From an uncultured archaeon (GTDB taxonomy: Archaea > Asgardarchaeota > Thorarchaeia > Thorarchaeales > Thorarchaeaceae), in assembly GCA_964354495.1 (NCBI GenBank), contig CAYHAA010000001.1, positions 1 to 32,000 of the forward strand: a stretch of DNA of 32,000 nucleotides, given 5' to 3'. Position 1 is the first letter of the stretch, and every line of letters starts with the position of its first letter. A program made the translations under genes and the position numbers. The notes beneath the pieces are model-generated. The model saw only the letters and a list, made by a program, of their open reading frames with translations, searched no databases and was not told where the DNA came from. Below are positions 1 through 8,494 of this stretch, in pieces.

Positions 1-3000
1 CTCACCAGCACCTCTGCCTTGAGTATTAAAGCCTCAAGTAGATTCGCTCTGAATGAAGCACTGCGCGGGACCTCCGGTTCTATCATCTCAATGTATTTGT
101 CAATGGTCTCCAGTGCCTGTTGTGACATTCCACCCTCTCGAAGCTCTTGTGCCTCTCTTTTCATTCGACCATATTCAACTGCAGCCGAGAAGGGATCTAG
201 TGGTGGCCTTGTGGAGACCTCTTCTACGGCTCTCCACCCTCTCTCCTTGGCAATATTCTTGAGGACACCTGATAGTGACTCTCTCACCTCCTCAGGAGAC
301 TCTATCTCGTACCCCTCCGACCTCGCTATTCGGTCTACGCCTTCTGTCAGTCTCTCAAACGCCTCGTCAGGGGTCGTTTCTTCACTGACCCTGATGGAGC
401 CATAGTCACGCCGCACTGAATCAGGGCTTCTTCTCTCTACACAATACCTCACAAGGTCACCTTCACCATGTAGCTCGACACTATACAGGTTCTCAGGCCT
501 ATATCCCTGACTTCTCAACATCCCCTTGACATGCTCTCTCAGTAAGTTCTGGTCCATGATTTTTCGGGATGAGAAGGTCTTGCTGATAGACGTGATGATG
601 GCATCTGTCATATTCTCTAGACTCGCAGCTCGAAACAGAGGTATGGTGAAGGACTGCCCTCTGTAGGTTGCTCCTGTGGTGTCGGACCTTGCACTCCATG
701 TGATGTGGTCCCTCTGGAATTCAATTGAGACAATCCATCGTTCCTCTCTTTTCAACAGGTAGGAGCCTGGCAGATGAAGTTCTTTGAGAGCCTTGGGCAC
801 AATCTCCCTGTAGGCTTGAACCAGGAAAATGCTCTCTCTAAACTCTCGTGGAAGATGGTCAACCTCAGGGACCTTGAACTCGTGAATCACCCACTTGTCC
901 GCATCATTGTAGACCAGAGCACCAGTCTTCAGGAGGGTGGCTAGGGCAGGACCACTCAGCGCAACGCGCTCAAGGTGTTTCACCCCCTCCGGTAGGCCCT
1001 CATCAGCCTTCAGCATGACTCTCCAGCACACACCATGACGAAAGACTGACTCGCTCAGGATTGCATCAGGCTGCCCCAGTTGGCCCTCAATCCTTTGGAG
1101 ATACTCTGAGACATCTACACCACCTTGTTCATCCATCCGTCGTTTCAATTCATCCTCTGAAACTAGGCAGAGAGGACATGTCCCTCGGTCATGCAGGACA
1201 GAGAGCTCTAGACCGACTCTCTTCTCGATCCCGATGAACTGCTCAGCAGTCGCCGGAAGACTCAGGTCTTCGGTCTTGAAGGGCTCTCTTCTCTCAACCC
1301 ACGGTCTCAGAATGTTAGCATCATCCATGTATTCAATGTCCTTGAACCTATTCCATATCAGCTCATGCTCGCCAATGATCACCTGTTCGCACTGAAAGTC
1401 TGGTCTTCTCAATATCTCAAGCAAATCGATAGTGCGCTTGATCAACAGATGGGCCATCTCTTCGTTCTTCGCAGGTCTGAGAAAAGAGACCCTGAACATC
1501 TGTTCCCTGGTGTCCACCGATACCTGACATCTTGCAGCCTCACACCTTCTGAAGACTGCAGAGAGAGTTCCAAGACCGACTTCCACGATGTCCCCTAGAT
1601 CTGATGGTGGTGCTCTGACCTTATGTGCCATGATTTCTTCGAGGTCAGCATCCTCTCTCAGAGTCATAGACATCAGGAGAGTAACTCCCTCGCTCCTGCG
1701 TGTGTAGTAGTCCAGTTGTCCGATAGGCATCCAGGTATTCTTCGCTTTATCGTGGATCCAGAGCCCCCTCACGTTTCTATATGTAGCAACCAAGATATCC
1801 ACGCTGTCATCCAGATTGACGGTGTCAGATAGTATACCCAGACGTGTCAGATCCGACTCTCCCCAGAAGGGCTTCTCTCGACACAATCCCCTGAGAGCCT
1901 CTACGATTGAATCCTCCTTTTCGGAGGACAGTCGAATAGAGATAGTGTTCATATCATGACTGCCTGGTCTTGCTTGGAATAGCAGTAACAAAGAGGCTGG
2001 TCTTCCCTTCTCCTCCACGAATGCTGCCTTTCCAAAATGAATATCATGGACCTCTTTGCTCTTGTATAGGTTCTGCAGGGCTTCAGCGCGTCTAGCCAGT
2101 CTGTCGATGAGCTGAGGCCGATGAAGGACTGACTCGCCAGTCTGGTGGGGAAGAGGGTACTCTGGCTCAAATCCCAGAGCTATGAGTTGCCAAGGCATAA
2201 GGTACTCCCAGAGTTTTTGAGTGACAGCCCTCGGAAACTCTAATGATTGTGCTGGACGGAGTGCAGCAAGAAGAATGAGGAAGAGCTGATTACCCATGAC
2301 TAGGAGTAGGTCTGGATGTTGAGACATCAGCTGTTTCAGAACCACATCCTGGTCTGGAGAGAGTCCCTGGGGAGCCCGTGTTCGAAAGACCTTTAGATGC
2401 GCCCAGATCCCTTTACTCAGAGAGTGTGTCTCAAGAACCATTCTCACAGCCCTCAGAGGGCTGAATACGTCTATTGAGGGGGCGCGATTGGTAGTGTTTC
2501 TATGCGCAAGCTCACTGAGTGAGTCCAAGAGATTCCTCCATTCACTCTTCTCACAGTGACTCTTTCTGAGTATCTCTATGACACGCCTGATCCCACTGAG
2601 TTCTCGACTGACAATGATAGCATGGTCTCTCTGCCCATACTTCAGAAGCGCGACATGAGGCGGTCGTGTGGTCACCCTTCGAGGTTGTCCATACAGACGG
2701 GTTTCTCTGTACTCTCGTTTCTGGTTTATCTTCCCCAGTGGTTCGATAAGGGTTACCCTCCCATCATGTTCCTTCGTAGTCAGATGCTGATGTGGTGTGA
2801 AGTTCACTCTGGACAAGAAGGAAGGTGGATTTGATGGAGATGTCGGTAGTAGATTGCTAATGACAGTCTCAATTCTCTCTTGATCAGGGGAGTCTGAATT
2901 CTCCTCATAGAATCTCTGGAGGTGCGGAATTAGTTCAAGAATCGACTGCTCATCCTCCTCCTCACAAGCTCTACTCTGCACTCGTCTAGCACTTGGATAT

Positions 3001-5612
3001 GAGGATCTGAGATAGAACGTCTGTCGTCGACTGGTGTTCTCAACCCGCTTACTGTCTGGTCGAAATCTTTCACCCCACAAGTACAATGGAGGAATCAGTA
3101 TAGGAGTGATGTCGATGGCATCGGCTCGCTCAACGACCAGCCACCGCAGGTCATCCTCTATAGGAGCGTATGAACCGTATCTCATAGGAGCAGTTGGCAC
3201 ATTGTAGATGATTTCGTCCACGAGGTTCGCCCAATGACTCTCATTATAGAAGGGAGCGATACTTCGTGTGTCATAACGTTGGGCGGTGTTACTGATTGGA
3301 ACAGGTCTTTCAAACCACAACGCCGTGGAATGCTCAGGGACCTCGTTCAGAAGACGAACCATCAGTTCATCTAGCAGTGATTCTCTGTCCTTTGGGATAG
3401 TGCTTCTCACCCCGTCGATTCCGGTGACCACAATGAAAGGTCTTCTCGCGTTCTTGAGAAGACACCGTATCTCTGCGCAGATCTTACTGAGAGATGTATC
3501 CCCATAAAGATACGATGCCACAGACTCGCTCAAATCGACGAACCTAATTCTTCTTGTGAGGAGGCCCAGTACACTCTCTGGCTGTAGATTAGTCCTGAGA
3601 ACACGTCTTCTTTTCTCAGGATTTCCGTATTCTCCTGCGAGGTCAAACCAGTAGATGTCCCTGTGCTTTCCCCTCGTCCGTTCATGGATGAGTTCAAGTC
3701 CATGCCACTTGGCGGCAATTCGCGCAGCAGACTCTGAGGGGGATCCTCTTCCAGATACGGTGAGGTACAGAATGAACTCTCTATCGTCTTTCCGTTTCTC
3801 AGAAAACTGAAATGGGTCGAAATGCTTGACCTTTTTGATTGGATTGGTTTCTCTGTTTTCAATATCACTGAAGAAAACAAGCCCCAACCGGAGGGTCTTA
3901 TACTCTGGAGAGAGATGGAAATGTTCTCTCTTTGATAGTGCAGCACCTATTGATGTATGATATGCCTTCAAGATCAGCTCTTTGATGTGGTCACGAAGAG
4001 TTTCCCAATTCTCGTTCAGGTCAACAACAAGCACTCCCTTCATGAGGCTCTTGGGCGGGTCAGAGTCATGTGGTGCATATCTCCGGTATTCCTCAAGCAC
4101 GGTCTTCTCATACGCGGCGAGCTGTAAGCGTTCATACTTTGTCGGTCTCGACTCGATGACCTCATTCCATTCAGGATCTTCGGATCTACGCAGTTCCATC
4201 TCATGTTCAATGACTCTACTGCGCCTGTCCTTTGACTTTGTTAATGTTGCATACAGGTCCAGATCGAAAAAGCACGTTGACTTGACCTCGACAAGCATGC
4301 AGGGTTCCCAGATATCCTCGATATATGAGTCATCAACTCGTTGGAGTCTCTTTCTCCGAGAGAGAAGGATATCAAGGCGCCCCCTGCCATTCGCAATAGG
4401 CACCTCGCAGGAAAAGAGGAACTCAGTCTTCTCTGAAACCATCTCATCTCCATGCCTGAAAGTACTCTGAAGGTTGAAGGGTCGAGTTGTAAACTCCGCG
4501 TTGGCGATGAAGTCATGGAACGCAGAGCCTAGTTTCCGACTATGCTCCCGAAGGTCCCTTGCGATGTTTTTTGAGTCATCAGGACCCAGCAAATTGCCTT
4601 CAATGAGTGTTCTCAGTTGTTTGACCTGTTTCTTCCACTCAGGGTTCGTTCTAGTATCACATCTATCTGCAAGGTGAGGAAGAAAGGAGTCAAGGACCAT
4701 TTGACGTGGACCCCGAGAGTTAGCATCAACAAACTCCTTCTCAATAATAGTTGCCTTTGATGCCCCTTTCAGACCTTTATCATTGGAGTTCCGGATAAGC
4801 ATGATCTCTGTATTTTCATCCTTCATCGACTCTGAGATCTCTCCCGTGATTGATTGTGGGCGACCATTCACTCCTCCAAAGGTGGCACGAATCTCTAGGG
4901 TGATCTCTCTGAGTATCTTCGCACTGCCTCGTACAAATCCTGACTCTATCTTCTTCTGTTCGGTGTAGATGTATTCCAAGTGAGGAATGAGTCGTTTGAC
5001 GAGTGCATCAAGGTAAAGTCTTGCCTCTCTCAGGGGGACGGAGTACTTCATACACTGTCGGATAAGCTCTACTCCATGACTGCGAATCATATCGACAAAG
5101 TCCTGTTCTGGAGCCGTGTGTCGTGGAGCAAACTCTGGAATGCACGAGTTTCCAGGATAGACCCATCTCACTTTTCCCTGATCTGTTAGTGTCCTCATTG
5201 GTGATGGAAACGGAAACCGTTCGGCGGCCAAGTTTCTGAGCCGTGCACCATAATAGTCTGCAAGGTTGTTGATGTATTTCCTATCCTCTCTTTTCCTCTT
5301 TCTCTTAGTTTCAGCGTTGCCGTATGGGACTGATGTGTTGAAGATGATCTTGTTGAAACTTCGACGGATGTTGTTTTCGGCTCTCTGAAAGTGGACTGCA
5401 TCAGGTCTTCGAGCTCGCTTGGAACTTGAATAGCTCTCATTTGCCTCTAGATAGATCCTTCTAATCCCCTTGCATCCCTTTCCTCCCTCATAGAGATGTT
5501 TAGTGGCCTTAGTGATTCTGGATTTTGCCAGATATACTGTCGAAGAGAGCCCGAGCTGGATAGATCTGGTGAGAACCTTGCCAGGATGAGAAGGCAATCT
5601 ACTACCTATCAT
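1..5612 (-). CDS. Giant protein (>=1870 aa, runs off the left edge) with an N-terminal-third PD-(D/E)XK RecB/AddB/Cas4-like nuclease domain, a degenerate P-loop-like domain and a long uncharacterised C-terminal region
   Basis: Manual translation from ATG 5612 (MIGSRLPSHPGKVLTRS...) stays open to position 3 (...NLLEALILKAEVLV). It is absent from the ORF track, consistent with having no stop in the window; the + strand ORFs here are Ser-rich antisense shadows. Motifs: GSAFH (H366), CEVP (E403), GRLD (D414), VEVK (E442/K444), QLAAY (Q497-Y501). A TTATATAA box lies about 30 nt upstream. Confidence 0.85.
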   Translation of the reverse strand, partial: MIGSRLPSHPGKVLTRSIQLGLSSTVYLAKSRITKATKHLYEGGKGCKGIRRIYLEANESYSSSKRARRPDAVHFQRAENNIRRSFNKIIFNTSVPYGNAETKRKRKREDRKYINNLADYYGARLRNLAAERFPFPSPMRTLTDQGKVRWVYPGNSCIPEFAPRHTAPEQDFVDMIRSHGVELIRQCMKYSVPLREARLYLDALVKRLIPHLEYIYTEQKKIESGFVRGSAKILREITLEIRATFGGVNGRPQSITGEISESMKDENTEIMLIRNSNDKGLKGASKATIIEKEFVDANSRGPRQMVLDSFLPHLADRCDTRTNPEWKKQVKQLRTLIEGNLLGPDDSKNIARDLREHSRKLGSAFHDFIANAEFTTRPFNLQSTFRHGDEMVSEKTEFLFSCEVPIANGRGRLDILLSRRKRLQRVDDSYIEDIWEPCMLVEVKSTCFFDLDLYATLTKSKDRRSRVIEHEMELRRSEDPEWNEVIESRPTKYERLQLAAYEKTVLEEYRRYAPHDSDPPKSLMKGVLVVDLNENWETLRDHIKELILKAYHTSIGAALSKREHFHLSPEYKTLRLGLVFFSDIENRETNPIKKVKHFDPFQFSEKRKDDREFILYLTVSGRGSPSESAARIAAKWHGLELIHERTRGKHRDIYWFDLAGEYGNPEKRRRVLRTNLQPESVLGLLTRRIRFVDLSESVASYLYGDTSLSKICAEIRCLLKNARRPFIVVTGIDGVRSTIPKDRESLLDELMVRLLNEVPEHSTALWFERPVPISNTAQRYDTRSIAPFYNESHWANLVDEIIYNVPTAPMRYGSYAPIEDDLRWLVVERADAIDITPILIPPLYLWGERFRPDSKRVENTSRRQTFYLRSSYPSARRVQSRACEEEDEQSILELIPHLQRFYEENSDSPDQERIETVISNLLPTSPSNPPSFLSRVNFTPHQHLTTKEHDGRVTLIEPLGKINQKREYRETRLYGQPRRVTTRPPHVALLKYGQRDHAIIVSRELSGIRRVIEILRKSHCEKSEWRNLLDSLSELAHRNTTNRAPSIDVFSPLRAVRMVLETHSLSKGIWAHLKVFRTRAPQGLSPDQDVVLKQLMSQHPDLLLVMGNQLFLILLAALRPAQSLEFPRAVTQKLWEYLMPWQLIALGFEPEYPLPHQTGESVLHRPQLIDRLARRAEALQNLYKSKEVHDIHFGKAAFVEEKGRPASLLLLFQARPGSHDMNTISIRLSSEKEDSIVEALRGLCREKPFWGESDLTRLGILSDTVNLDDSVDILVATYRNVRGLWIHDKAKNTWMPIGQLDYYTRRSEGVTLLMSMTLREDADLEEIMAHKVRAPPSDLGDIVEVGLGTLSAVFRRCEAARCQVSVDTREQMFRVSFLRPAKNEEMAHLLIKRTIDLLEILRRPDFQCEQVIIGEHELIWNRFKDIEYMDDANILRPWVERREPFKTEDLSLPATAEQFIGIEKRVGLELSVLHDRGTCPLCLVSEDELKRRMDEQGGVDVSEYLQRIEGQLGQPDAILSESVFRHGVCWRVMLKADEGLPEGVKHLERVALSGPALATLLKTGALVYNDADKWVIHEFKVPEVDHLPREFRESIFLVQAYREIVPKALKELHLPGSYLLKREERWIVSIEFQRDHITWSARSDTTGATYRGQSFTIPLFRAASLENMTDAIITSISKTFSSRKIMDQNLLREHVKGMLRSQGYRPENLYSVELHGEGDLVRYCVERRSPDSVRRDYGSIRVSEETTPDEAFERLTEGVDRIARSEGYEIESPEEVRESLSGVLKNIAKERGWRAVEEVSTRPPLDPFSAAVEYGRMKREAQELREGGMSQQALETIDKYIEMIEPEVPRSASFRANLLEALILKAEVLV

Positions 5613-5641
5613 TTCTGTCCGGCACTCTATTGTTATGTTAC

Positions 5642-5649
5642 TTATATAA
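5642..5649 (-). promoter_or_regulatory. Archaeal TATA box for the giant ORF (probably a leaderless transcript)
   Basis: TTATATAA 30 nt upstream of ATG 5612 in an AT-rich intergenic region. Confidence 0.55.
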
Positions 5650-5759
5650 TATCCGTAGACTATTATCCATTTTAGACTATGCCAAAGTGGCCAAATAAAA
5701 CCAAGATATGAGGCTAAATGGGGTCAGCAGGGACTAATCTTGTTAAATACTATAAGGAG

Positions 5760-5767
5760 TTTAAATA
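5760..5767 (+). promoter_or_regulatory. Archaeal TATA box for the TnpB-like gene
   Basis: TTTAAATA preceded by a purine-rich tract (AAGGAG), 33 nt before ATG 5801; SD-like GGAG at 5789-5792. Confidence 0.5.
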
Positions 5768-5800
5768 GCATCGTAGGCACTGGTATTTGGAGAAACGACG

Positions 5801-7966
5801 ATGAAACAAGACATCCAGTGCCATTCCTGGAGGCAAGGGCAGAGGTCTACACCACAGCCAATGCAAGAGTCAATGACTGGCAAATACTATAAGGATTCGT
5901 CGCAGACGAAATATCTTGTCGAGTCGTTTATTCTAAACTCCGAAGACAGAGTTGTTTCGAGAAAAGGAGTTGGACGGAGACCACACCCATCCTTCAAAAG
6001 AAGCAGTAGACAGGATTCCATGCTCTCATCCATCCTAAGAGGAACCGGAAAGAAGGTCAAGGACATTGACCTCAGAACTCTCTCCCTTCACTTCGAGAGA
6101 TATATGCAGGCTGTGAATCTTGTCCTCTCAAAGATATACAGTAGTCCCAAGCGAGCAGCACAACTCGGAAAAGAACTATCAGAATACAATGGGAGAGCCT
6201 ATACGCTTCTCAGAAGGCAGAGAGACCTCTGTTATGAACATAATCAAGACATCAAGGATTTGGTGTACGAGAGACTTCACAGGAATGTCCTTGAGCAAGC
6301 TGGAAGGATGCTATTTGCTGACTGGTCGAGAAGAGAGCTGTTCACCTCTGCTCTGAAGGTCCTCGATGCCTCACAAGACGACACACTGACTCTTCTGAGA
6401 AGGAAGCACATTCCTGCATTTCTGATCAGGAAGGCCCGGGACTCGTGTGAGTCTACCAAGAACAATGGTGCAGGATATCATTACGCTATGGGTGTCCTCA
6501 GACAGCTCCGTCTTGCCATGGATAGGCATGTCCTTGACACTCTTGGAATCAAGATTGGATGGAGAGCAAGGCAGAGGAAGAAGGTAGCATCTCTTCTAAA
6601 GAGTGGTTCACCTGAATATCAGGGTGCAATTGATACCATAGAGTTACAGGTCAAGAGTTGGGCTAGGGATGGATATCCCTTCAGCATTCCCCAGCTCAGA
6701 AGTCAGAGTCTTGACTTCTCAGCCAGTACTGAAAACTCCACCGGGCAGGGATACTGGTTCACAATGGATGAAGAACGAGAGAACGAGATACTCCTCTATC
6801 TCAAACTCCCTCCTGGGATAGATGGTATTCAGCATGAAGATTCTCCACACAATGCAAAGACCCTCACCTTGCGCTTCCTTGACTGGCTTCCCAGTGCAAG
6901 CTCTATTGACAGGAGAAATGGCGAATTAGCCAAAGAGAAGAGTGATGTTCATCGCGCTGAGGGACTGACCTTCAGAGCAGCCAAGTTCGAGGACATGCAT
7001 CAGCAGCTTATGAACACCATTCAATTCCAGCACATTACCCACAGACTGGCAAGATTGAAGCAGAAAAAACACTCTGACTGCGAAGAGATCACGAGATTAC
7101 AGGAGAGAGTCAAACAACTGAGGAGTTCAAGGAGGAGTGCGCCCCCTCGGCTTCTTCTCAGAGGTCACAGAGTGATCCTTCAGATTCCCTTTCTCTCACC
7201 TAATGGTTCAGTGAGTTCAGCGGTTCTTGGTGAGAGGGAATACTCAACCAAGGCAGGAGCTGACAGGGGGCTTCGGGCTCCAGTGGCACTCTCTGTGGAG
7301 ACAGAGACCTCCTTCCAGGACCTCCTTATTAGAGTAGACTCCTTGGTAGAGAAGAGAGGAAGAATCAGGAGACATGCATCACAGCTCACCTCAGAGTTAA
7401 CAAGGAAGAAGAACAACTGGGATAGGAAGCGGTCAGGACAGTTATATCCAGCGCCTATACTGAAACGTGACAGACATGTCGACGCGCTGTGGAAAAAAGT
7501 ACGTCGTCTTGACCTCGAGATTGCCCGACAAGTAGCCTCTCAAACTGTGTGGTTCTGTGAGGAACACAGAGTGAAGAGGTTGTTCTTCGAGGACCTGCGG
7601 AGCTTTCAGGCTCGCGCCGGGTCAAAAGACCTGTCGTACAATCTCTCCTCAAATCTCTGGGGGCGGATCATCGACACAGTTCGCTACATGCGCGAGGCCC
7701 TTGGCCATAGCAAATACAGTGTGTGGACGGTAAGCCCGAGATATACATCTCAGACCTGTCATATGTGTGGAGAGAGAGGGTTTCGAGTAGAGGATGAGAT
7801 CTCCACCACTGAGAGAAAGGGAGGGGAGTACTTTTACTGCTCACAGTGTGATACGCACTTCCATGCTGATATCAATGCAGCACGGAACATCATTCATGTT
7901 CAGGACTCCAGTGCCGCTTCTGGAGGGACAAAGGGCATATGTCCAGGTTTGTCTAGGTTACAATAA
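5801..7966 (+). CDS. tnpB: Oversized TnpB/Cas12f-like RNA-guided RuvC endonuclease (721 aa; alternative starts at 5861 and 5873)
   Basis: RuvC-I AGADRGL (D488), bridge-helix region, RuvC-II FFEDL (E597), VSPRYTSQTCHMCG, Zn finger C653/C656/C680/C683, RuvC-III HADINAARNI (D690). N-terminal LHFERYMQAVNLVL resembles the TnpB helical region. Confidence 0.9.
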   Translation: MKQDIQCHSWRQGQRSTPQPMQESMTGKYYKDSSQTKYLVESFILNSEDRVVSRKGVGRRPHPSFKRSSRQDSMLSSILRGTGKKVKDIDLRTLSLHFERYMQAVNLVLSKIYSSPKRAAQLGKELSEYNGRAYTLLRRQRDLCYEHNQDIKDLVYERLHRNVLEQAGRMLFADWSRRELFTSALKVLDASQDDTLTLLRRKHIPAFLIRKARDSCESTKNNGAGYHYAMGVLRQLRLAMDRHVLDTLGIKIGWRARQRKKVASLLKSGSPEYQGAIDTIELQVKSWARDGYPFSIPQLRSQSLDFSASTENSTGQGYWFTMDEERENEILLYLKLPPGIDGIQHEDSPHNAKTLTLRFLDWLPSASSIDRRNGELAKEKSDVHRAEGLTFRAAKFEDMHQQLMNTIQFQHITHRLARLKQKKHSDCEEITRLQERVKQLRSSRRSAPPRLLLRGHRVILQIPFLSPNGSVSSAVLGEREYSTKAGADRGLRAPVALSVETETSFQDLLIRVDSLVEKRGRIRRHASQLTSELTRKKNNWDRKRSGQLYPAPILKRDRHVDALWKKVRRLDLEIARQVASQTVWFCEEHRVKRLFFEDLRSFQARAGSKDLSYNLSSNLWGRIIDTVRYMREALGHSKYSVWTVSPRYTSQTCHMCGERGFRVEDEISTTERKGGEYFYCSQCDTHFHADINAARNIIHVQDSSAASGGTKGICPGLSRLQ
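5814..5833 (+). repeat. Left copy of a hairpin direct repeat bracketing the TnpB-like gene
   Basis: TCCAG-TGCCATTC-CTGGA-GG; 17/20 identical to 7907-7926 with all mismatches in the loop; both copies are followed by AAGGGCA. Confidence 0.75.
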
Positions 7967-8015
7967 ACGGTATCTGAGCCGCAATTTCATCGGTCACTAG
8001 ACAGTCAATGACTCT
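7860..8015 (+). ncRNA. Candidate omegaRNA (reRNA) overlapping the tnpB 3' end; boundaries uncertain
   Basis: TnpB omegaRNAs typically overlap the 3' end of the gene (established knowledge). Visible stems: 7906-7925, GGACA/TGTCC (7926-7930 with 7940-7944) and GACAAA/TTTGTC (7927-7932 with 7948-7953). TCAC at 7994-7997 resembles an IS200/IS605 right-end tetranucleotide. Confidence 0.4.
7906..7926 (+). repeat. Right copy of the hairpin direct repeat, inside the 3' end of the TnpB-like ORF
   Basis: CTCCAG-TGCCGCTT-CTGGAG-G, 6-bp stem with 8-nt loop. Confidence 0.75.
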
Positions 8016-8494
8016 AGGTCAACTGCCTCTCGCTTGATGAGTTCGACAATCTTAGCGATTTCACTTGATAGCACGACCGGAATGTCTTGATTGCCCTGGA
8101 ATGCGTCTGAAGACCAAGTGACTATCGCCTTCACAGACTCAGGAAGTACGCTGACTTCACTCTCAGCATTGCCAACGCACCAGAGCTTTGGTACTTCGCT
8201 CTCCTTCAGTCCCTCAATGATAAGGAAGTCCGCTGTGACTCCAGAGAGCAATTCGTGCAGACTCCTTCTATCATTGTGTGTGACAGCCGAGCTGTGCGGA
8301 CCGAGAATGACCGTGGCAGTCGCGCCTGCTCGTATGTGCCTCCAGGAGTCCTTGCCCTCCGTATCATAGATCTCATGCATGGTGCTCTTTGCTGTCACCA
8401 CGACATGCCCTTGCTTAACCAGTCTCTTAACAATCTGTTCCACTAGTGTGGTCTTTCCTGTTCCAGAATATCCCGACACTGCAAAGGCTCGCAT
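7997..8494 (-). CDS. mobB: Molybdopterin-guanine dinucleotide biosynthesis protein B
   Basis: MRAFAVSGYSGTGKTTLVEQIV Walker A, DTEGKDSWRHIRAGA, DFLIIEGLK. Start moved to ATG 8494 from the track's 8575. Confidence 0.88.
   Translation of the reverse strand: MRAFAVSGYSGTGKTTLVEQIVKRLVKQGHVVVTAKSTMHEIYDTEGKDSWRHIRAGATATVILGPHSSAVTHNDRRSLHELLSGVTADFLIIEGLKESEVPKLWCVGNAESEVSVLPESVKAIVTWSSDAFQGNQDIPVVLSSEIAKIVELIKREAVDLESLTV

Follow-up and report, generated by a model that had tools for sequence, protein, structure and literature searches.

A guide-RNA scaffold duplicated in the first codons of a thorarchaeal TnpB-like nuclease gene suggests RNA-guided repression of its own promoter

We analysed a stretch of 32,000 nt from an uncultured archaeon of the Thorarchaeaceae (contig CAYHAA010000001.1, positions 1 to 32,000; assembly GCA_964354495.1), called the window here. 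It contains part of a mobile unit with a gene for a TnpB/Cas12f-like nuclease (P0001, 721 aa, 5801–7966, + strand). Two matching hairpins lie near the two ends of this gene, and comparison of homologous loci identifies each of them as the first stem-loop of a guide-RNA scaffold that is present twice. One copy forms the right end of the unit. The other one lies in the first codons of the gene and is directly followed by a short word that is identical to a stretch of the gene's own promoter. Because a scaffold is followed by a guide-like word matching the promoter, RNA-guided binding to the promoter is suggested, and the mRNA probably carries an embedded natural guide for promoter autorepression. 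In its full form, to which we assign a probability of roughly 55%, this reading states that an active Asgard TnpB-like nuclease would be programmed by the translated 5′ end of its mRNA, which provides a complete second scaffold and a guide of 11–16 nt, and would sit on its own transcription factor B recognition element (BRE) and TATA box in a self-contained negative feedback.

Results

A full second scaffold lies within codons 2–27

A covariance model was trained on 35 right-end scaffolds only. Applied to the 5′ region of the gene, this model gave a full-length match at 5806–5881 (+ strand, 27.4 bits, E = 2e-7 in 501 nt), which falls within codons 2–27. A model built from homologous loci had been proposed as a check in an earlier reading of the sequence (the original prediction), and in all 20 loci searched it detected the scaffold a second time, over its full length, at the 5′ end of the gene (E-values from 1e-5 to 1.3 in 97 kb). 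The 5′ copy comprises a hairpin resembling the first hairpin (H1) of the right-end scaffold (5814–5831), a pseudoknot between 5820–5826 and 5875–5881 that contains one U·C mismatch, and the tail TCAATGACTGGC.

The 5′ hairpin is present in all full-length homologs, with a stem of 5 bp and a loop of 8 nt, beginning 11–16 nt after the ATG. Across 21 loci, which represent six stem variants, it is 100% paired, and three of its five pairs change on both sides. Its covariation score is 0.66 compared with 0.23 in shuffles (0/500). The stem variants include a swap between Q..W and R..R, which is nonsynonymous and changes two amino acids. Among ~50 distinct 5′ ends, 42 form perfect hairpins and most of the others retain four of the five pairs. 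Codon usage within the hairpin is also peculiar. Arginine is encoded there 51 times by CGG, CGT or CGC and never by CGA, and AGR codons occur only as four AGG at the last codon, whereas AGR makes up 51% of the arginine codons in the rest of the same genes.

The pairing of the 5′ loop with the tail was first proposed by RNAalifold on the 5′ model matches and was then counted explicitly. The 7 nt that precede the guide position are the partner of the loop, with 98.6% of the pairs formed and covariation in five of the seven. The two scaffold copies agree in their hairpin, in the pseudoknot between loop and tail and in the distance from hairpin to junction (~65 nt). An nhmmer profile of the right-end module had caught only the 20-nt hairpin in the 5′ regions, and only in the clade of the window; the structure-aware model later recovered the whole copy. 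Our data indicate that the 5′ copy is a full duplicated guide-RNA scaffold, with hairpin, pseudoknot and guide junction, and not a transposon end.

The scaffold is followed by a word that matches the promoter

Exactly one base after the scaffold match, a guide-like word starts at 5882–5895 (+ strand, codons 28–32). It is an exact 14-nt direct repeat of AAATACTATAAGGA at 5745–5758 (+ strand), which ends 1 nt before the TATA box and is the presumptive target (protospacer) of the 5′ guide. These two sites are the sole exact copies of the 14-mer in the 3.3-Mb genome.

An exact pair of words of 10–16 nt, one at the promoter site and one right after the 5′ scaffold, was found in 34 of 42 homologous loci, and the word itself varies between loci. 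Most of the loci that lack an exact pair match with one or two mismatches. In cross-locus controls the shared stretch was mostly 6–8 nt long and reached at least 12 nt in just 9 of 1722 pairs. When the junction was set independently by the covariance model, an exact prefix of 11–16 nt was found at the promoter site in 17 of 20 loci, and none was longer than 16 nt. At one locus (L117) the shared run is 20 nt, made up of 16 nt past the junction plus TGGT ahead of it. After the variable word (5896–5901 in the window, and in the homologs), nearly all loci resume a conserved ..TCATC (Ser-Ser). Therefore, the variable stretch between scaffold and conserved coding sequence is fixed at ~14–16 nt.

Directly 5′ of the promoter word lies TCTTGTT (5738–5744, + strand), a candidate transposon-adjacent motif (TAM). 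In homologous loci this position reads TCTTG[TGA]T, TTCTGGT, TTCCGGT or TGTTGTT, always directly 5′ of the word and on the guide-identical strand. Since a conserved motif 5′ of the target on the guide-identical strand is what TnpB and Cas12 use, the arrangement has the geometry of a type V system.

A second family in the same genome has the same design

A second family of paired giant and TnpB-like genes, which is about 25–26% identical to the first, was found in the same genome (contigs C31, C6 and C17). It has the same design, with a different tail, a different motif and different words. The words GAATTTATATAC, AAGTTTATATAAC and AAATTTATAAGGTT each occur twice, 94–100 nt apart; the upstream word comes after T[TC]AAT and the downstream word after a GACC..GGTC[AG]G hairpin. 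These sites (C31:~7630–7740, C6 and C17) are located upstream of giant-gene homologs at C31:7866, C6:15564 and C17:2257.

The right-end scaffold and its boundary

A BLAST search of positions 7860–8100 against the window's own genome revealed that a structured module of ~65 nt (7907–7971) is repeated. The genome holds 24 copies, each of which ends in ...ACAAT[G/A]AACGGT and is followed by total divergence. The complete scaffold spans 7899–7971 (+ strand), includes the stop codon (7964–7966) and consists of H1 (7907–7924), a second hairpin H2 (7926–7954) and a pseudoknot between 7913–7919 and 7965–7971. The covariance-model match to this site scores 61.5 bits. H1 is 100% paired in 35 of 35 sequences, with exchanges between CG and UA (19/15) and between GC and CG (31/4), and H2 covaries as well, with G·U pairs. 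The pseudoknot is 94.7% paired, and the final base of the loop is paired to the one that varies in the [G/A/C]AACGGT tail (CG in 13, UG in 9, GC in 7 and UA in 5 cases). This loop-tail pseudoknot accounts for the shared loop motif and for TGA, TAA or TCA at the stop position.

The right boundary was placed between 7971 and 7972, because the closest relative (G012), in which a full-length homolog is absent, aligns to the window only from 7969 rightwards (89.6% identity). Since the module covers the 3′ end of the gene and terminates together with the element, it has the look of a TnpB guide scaffold. Our comparisons indicate that it is a transposon-end guide-RNA scaffold of the omegaRNA type at the right end of the mobile unit. 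The presumptive guide of the 3′ RNA would be the flank right after the right end as seen in the alignment with the relative, at 7972–7991 (+ strand, length inferred).

Two observations concern the surroundings of right ends. The sequence GGTATCTGAGCC, at 7969–7980 of the window, is found again at C25:16301–16312 of the same genome. There it comes after an Ogg-like gene, and this gene is the direct left neighbour of the site in the closest relative. The repeat could reflect a large insertion with a 9–12-bp duplication, or a rearrangement at the element. Furthermore, in three genomes (L002:~1380–1450, L049 and L050) one paralog terminates at its right end ~50 nt away from an oppositely oriented tRNA gene, which looks like an old orthologous insertion.

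Similarity between the two hairpins

The original prediction started from two 20-mers, at 5814–5833 and 7907–7926. It gave their positions and their identity of 17/20 correctly, and all three mismatches do fall within the 8-nt loop. The similarity that it saw on both sides of the hairpins is genuine, though alignable only with gaps (5807–5847 versus 7901–7943). The best local alignment of these segments has a score of 33; the scores of 2000 shuffles had a mean of 14.6 (sd 2.1) and none reached 33, and the runner-up among 1058 real segments of 120 nt scored 25. In a degenerate search for the 20-mer, no more than these two sites were found in 32 kb with up to three mismatches, where shuffles expect 0.04.

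The 5′ hairpin has a stem of 5 bp (TCCAG/CTGGA) and the 3′ hairpin one of 6 bp. Sharing of the stem sequence between both ends is peculiar to the clade of the window (7–9 of 32 loci). Outside this clade the 5′ and 3′ hairpins are alike in geometry and loop motif and unlike in stem sequence, and the idea that the stems generally track each other was dropped. When loop position 3 was compared by hand with the 3′ loop, the one-sided p was ~0.07, which is not significant. A genome-wide regular-expression search for the hairpin yielded 33 matches compared with 9 in the reversed control. Because the surplus consists entirely of right ends and 5′ gene ends, the hairpin is no general host motif. A search of 5600–8100 against Rfam gave no match. 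Single-sequence folding gave z-scores from −1.2 to +0.2, so that thermodynamics alone lends no support.

The TnpB-like protein and its start codon

The assignment of P0001 to TnpB/Cas12f-like nucleases is based on profile matches and on invariant catalytic and zinc-finger residues. P0001 matches the zinc-ribbon TNB domain PF07282 (E = 1.3e-14, 54.5 bits, cutoff 26.3) and the guided_TnpB model NF040570 (E = 1.5e-19), the latter with 70.5 bits, which is under the curated cutoff of 100. The TnpB/Cas12f-like part is the C-terminal third, and the protein has a long helical N-terminal half. In 20 homologs the RuvC triad (D488, E597 and D690) and the zinc-finger cysteines (C653, C656, C680 and C683) are invariant. 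An AlphaFold2 model of P0001 is of moderate quality, with a mean predicted local distance difference test score (pLDDT) of 65. In a Foldseek search with this model, all 15 matches with E ≤ 1e-3 were Cas12f or Cas12p, with TnpB just beneath; the matches include the TnpB complexes 8H1J and 8IAZ (ISDra2-type), and their template modelling (TM) scores are low (0.12–0.25). A phmmer search of P0001 against the PDB gave no match. Residues 1–38, which are also unconserved, and residues 694–721 have a pLDDT of ~27, and both scaffolds thus underlie tails predicted to be disordered. Homologs that carry a name are from metagenome-assembled genomes of Thorarchaeota and related Asgard archaea. The protein family occurs in multiple copies and is distributed patchily, being present in 17 of 36 other genomes of the taxonomic family and in 11 of 27 of the genus.

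Under one of its two models, the original prediction preferred a start of translation at 5861 or 5873. Our comparison speaks against both and favours 5801, because the ATG, the ribosome-binding motif, the spacing of the TATA box and the open frame are all conserved. Every homolog shares the ATG, a GGAG/GGTGA motif 7–12 nt 5′ of it and a TATA-like octamer 38–43 nt 5′ of it, which in the window corresponds to a predicted archaeal-type TATA box, TTTAAATA (5760–5767, + strand), and the frame is open through the hairpin. A protein-collection entry (P0002, 648 aa) is 100% identical over 90% of P0001 and fits a start at Met74 (6020). The start at 5801, giving 721 aa, is favoured over the one implied by this entry.

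The mobile unit, its giant partner gene and short derivatives

Head-to-head with the TnpB-like gene lies a giant partner gene (3–5612, − strand), which encodes at least 1870 aa and runs off the start of the contig. A tblastn search located homologs of the giant gene upstream of the TnpB-like gene, in divergent orientation, at 14 loci and on 9 contigs of the window's own genome, and every full-length TnpB-like gene is paired in this way. Neither a Pfam scan of the giant protein nor the Cas1 profile PF01867 gave a match. The left-end module of the family sits beyond the giant gene and also at the start of short derivatives. Judged from these positions, the order of the unit is left end, giant gene, TnpB-like gene and right end. 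The 5′ hairpin is therefore internal to the unit. A left end at 5722 (GGGGTCAGCAGG) had been considered and was dropped when the giant gene turned out to belong to the unit. A search for Y1 TnpA (PF01797) in this 97.7%-complete genome gave no match, and positive controls responded.

At its own start the giant gene carries a 5-bp hairpin (5578–5597, − strand, codons 6–12) with the stem TTGCC/GGCAA and a loop of 10 nt, and relatives have a compensatory TTCCC/GGGAA. As a parallel to the 5′ hairpin of the nuclease gene it was set aside; it is confined to one clade and is possibly explained by the encoded FP..GK residues.

About 16 short elements, each 190–230 nt long, are built from the left-end module, a TATA box of their own, an extra 8-bp hairpin and the right-end scaffold. 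They keep only one hairpin of the kind discussed here, and the 5′ copy is absent from them. The internally deleted copies on C17, C46 and C24 have the same left-end module and also lack the 5′ hairpin. Short elements are located at L016:1456–1640 (C3:18835–19013 of the window's genome, G000), at C1:289797–289978, C4:57847–58028 and C8:16898–17078 of this genome, and at ~12 more sites. In the closest relative they lie on C81, C78, C44, C16 and C6; at least six persist there, and no full-length nuclease gene was found in that genome. Since near-identical copies occupy different places, the short elements have moved, and from their composition they look like mobile guide-RNA-only genes.

Empty sites, which the original prediction had proposed as a check, were sought for short elements in the closest relative, and none was clean. 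One site is occupied in both species, one is without a flank match and one is replaced by 803 nt. One short element lies at an orthologous site in both genomes (92% identity over 3 kb). At L019:1459–1636, a short element of 178 nt in the window's genome corresponds to 803 nt of unrelated, apparently coding DNA in the relative (L077, C12:2967–3771), and the junctions share GGGT and GAT. Judging by this alignment, the element seems to have replaced DNA instead of having been simply inserted.

Discussion

Proposed self-repression

In the mechanism that we propose, the message that encodes the nuclease would also provide its natural short guide: the 5′ end of this mRNA, either still attached or as an excised fragment, would be loaded into the protein. 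The loaded complex would bind its own promoter at the BRE/TATA region via 5745–5758. With a match of only 11–16 nt it would bind without cutting, and transcription would be shut off. The message itself would also be blocked or destroyed if its leader were bound in cis, and a translational block in cis may thus be an added layer. The guide of the 3′ scaffold, which stops at the right end of the unit, would be supplied by flanking DNA. RNA loading, DNA binding and repression by the nuclease are what we infer from the sequence comparisons. Short guides have such effects in related systems. An engineered TnpB with a 10-nt guide binds and does not cut (PMC13507860), the TldR repressors use guides of 9–11 nt (PMC10705468), and Streptococcus pyogenes Cas9 has a truncated natural single guide, tracr-L, with which Cas9 represses its own promoter (Workman et al., 10.1101/2020.05.21.102756). 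One of two models in the original prediction was that the 5′ copy mimics an omegaRNA stem at the start of the mRNA and lets the protein repress its own translation. The second copy at the mRNA start is in line with the core of this model. It was too modest in its extent, as the whole scaffold is copied and a guide-like word matches the gene's own promoter.

Several observations weigh against the proposal. In the window the 5′ hairpin is not the minimum-free-energy fold, is weak alone and has a z-score of ~0; its reality rests on the comparative evidence. Each of the two pseudoknots of the window has one mismatch, and the E-values of the model at the 5′ site are weak in some loci (0.15–1.3). 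Promoter-bearing short elements have an additional hairpin upstream that is missing from the 5′ scaffold, which may therefore be incomplete. The single element-free site available reads GGGGT before the target of the 3′ guide and not TCTTGNT, and one intact locus (L093/L035) shows no word match. Additionally, the counts overstate the number of independent events because the loci are related to each other.

Alternative explanations

The 5′ hairpin lies at +13 to +31 of an mRNA with a short leader and has its geometry and loop motif in common with the 3′ hairpin. It might thus be a pure translational operator, in which the protein bound to a hairpin mimic 13 nt after the AUG blocks ribosomes and the promoter word repeat has some other cause. 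We consider this unlikely, as it leaves unexplained why the whole scaffold is copied, including pseudoknot and tail, and why the following 11–16 nt track the promoter locus by locus. In another reading, the 5′ guide would direct cleavage of the DNA between the divergent genes and not repression, for example to start recombination, copy correction or inactivation of the element. The intact RuvC triad and matches as long as 15–16 nt at some loci would suit this idea. On the other hand, one tested TnpB with short guides binds without cutting (PMC13507860), and cutting the own promoter would be costly. Nor does any locus have a match of more than 16 nt, even though longer pairing of the mRNA with its gene would be possible, and this looks like selection against full pairing. 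We therefore regard cleavage as an improbable function of the 5′ guide.

Two further explanations place the function of the repeats in DNA. The word pair might be a target-site duplication left by insertion of a promoter plus scaffold, or the hairpins might be palindromic operators of a dimeric DNA-binding protein. Inverted repeats of 5 bp that lie 8 bp apart could be half-sites, and Cas1-type integrases make duplications of a length similar to the word of 12–16 nt. A single old duplication, however, would decay separately at each site, whereas the words stay identical within loci and differ between them; because of this concerted change, a target-site duplication was dropped as the source of the 14-nt repeat. 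The flanks are homologous across loci, hence repeated insertions did not occur, and the loop is asymmetrically conserved and pairs with a distant tail, including G·U pairs, as is expected of a strand-specific RNA feature. Taken together, a relic or operator at the DNA level is very unlikely. Least probable of all is the other model of the original prediction, according to which the hairpins form the left and right ends of an IS200/IS605 element that carries tnpB alone and are recognised in single-stranded form by a TnpA acting in trans. Elements of this kind (IS608 type) have subterminal hairpins at the left and right ends, and in the window, too, two similar hairpins on the same strand bracket an open reading frame of a multi-copy and patchy family. 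Against this model, the genome gave no PF01797 match, the giant gene is always within the unit and the true left-end module lies elsewhere. Unlike the end of such an element, the hairpin on the 5′ side lies inside the unit and follows both the TATA box and the ATG; it is predicted to be transcribed and is dispensable in the short and internally deleted derivatives.

Comparison with known systems

The 3′ module resembles the canonical TnpB omegaRNA (ISDra2-type) in that the scaffold overlaps the 3′ end of tnpB, ends at the right end of the element and would take its guide from the flank. In the canonical omegaRNA, too, a pseudoknot adjoins the guide. The window differs from it in the lack of a sequence or Rfam match, in a protein of 721 aa, in a giant partner instead of Y1 TnpA and in the second scaffold at the 5′ end. 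With tracr-L of Cas9 the proposed system shares a nuclease-competent effector, a scaffold and a truncated guide that matches the own promoter, which would likewise be bound without cutting and repressed. In contrast to tracr-L, the effector is TnpB-like, the host is an Asgard archaeon and the guide RNA would correspond to the first 32 codons of the nuclease mRNA, which are translated, with no separate transcript. TldR proteins are likewise of the TnpB fold and use short guides against promoter targets (PMC10705468), and the guide lengths of the two systems together span 9–16 nt. They are nuclease-dead, domesticated regulators of host genes, whereas the protein described here keeps the D-E-D triad, belongs to a mobile unit and would target its own promoter.

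The unit is also similar to the aCas1-TnpB loci of Asgard archaea (Cas1H-Asgard-1/2; Altae-Tran et al. 2023, PMC10691335), which, as far as the sections of that report considered here describe them, occur in Thorarchaeota, combine a TnpB-like gene with a large partner, are multi-copy and have terminal repeats. According to the same sections, tnpB is followed there by a hypervariable stretch lying between a conserved T and a motif resembling GTTCACTCA. A T also closes the right end in the window, yet neither GTTCACTCA nor a shared motif was found when the 30 nt downstream of 24 right ends were compared. These sections mention neither a 5′ scaffold nor a promoter match, both of which the unit in the window has.

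Significance

Self-repression of Cas9 via a truncated natural guide (tracr-L) and nuclease-dead TnpB relatives acting as repressors (TldR) are already known. In a literature search, we found no paper on an active, still-mobile TnpB that regulates itself in this way, and none on a guide scaffold within the coding 5′ end of a nuclease's own mRNA. The analysis corrects the annotation of the locus, with a gene start at 5801 and an element that is a giant-gene/TnpB unit and not a tnpB-only insertion sequence. If the proposed mechanism is true, it would provide a candidate TAM, a scaffold and a minimal guide length for an uncharacterised Asgard effector of 720 aa. Guide and target could be mutated and then compensated, which would make a clean test. 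It would show how such elements hold a dangerous nuclease at a low level, and it would offer a plausible route to RNA-guided transcription factors. As the design is kept in two divergent families, it could, if true, be a natural stepping stone from a transposon nuclease to an RNA-guided transcription factor.

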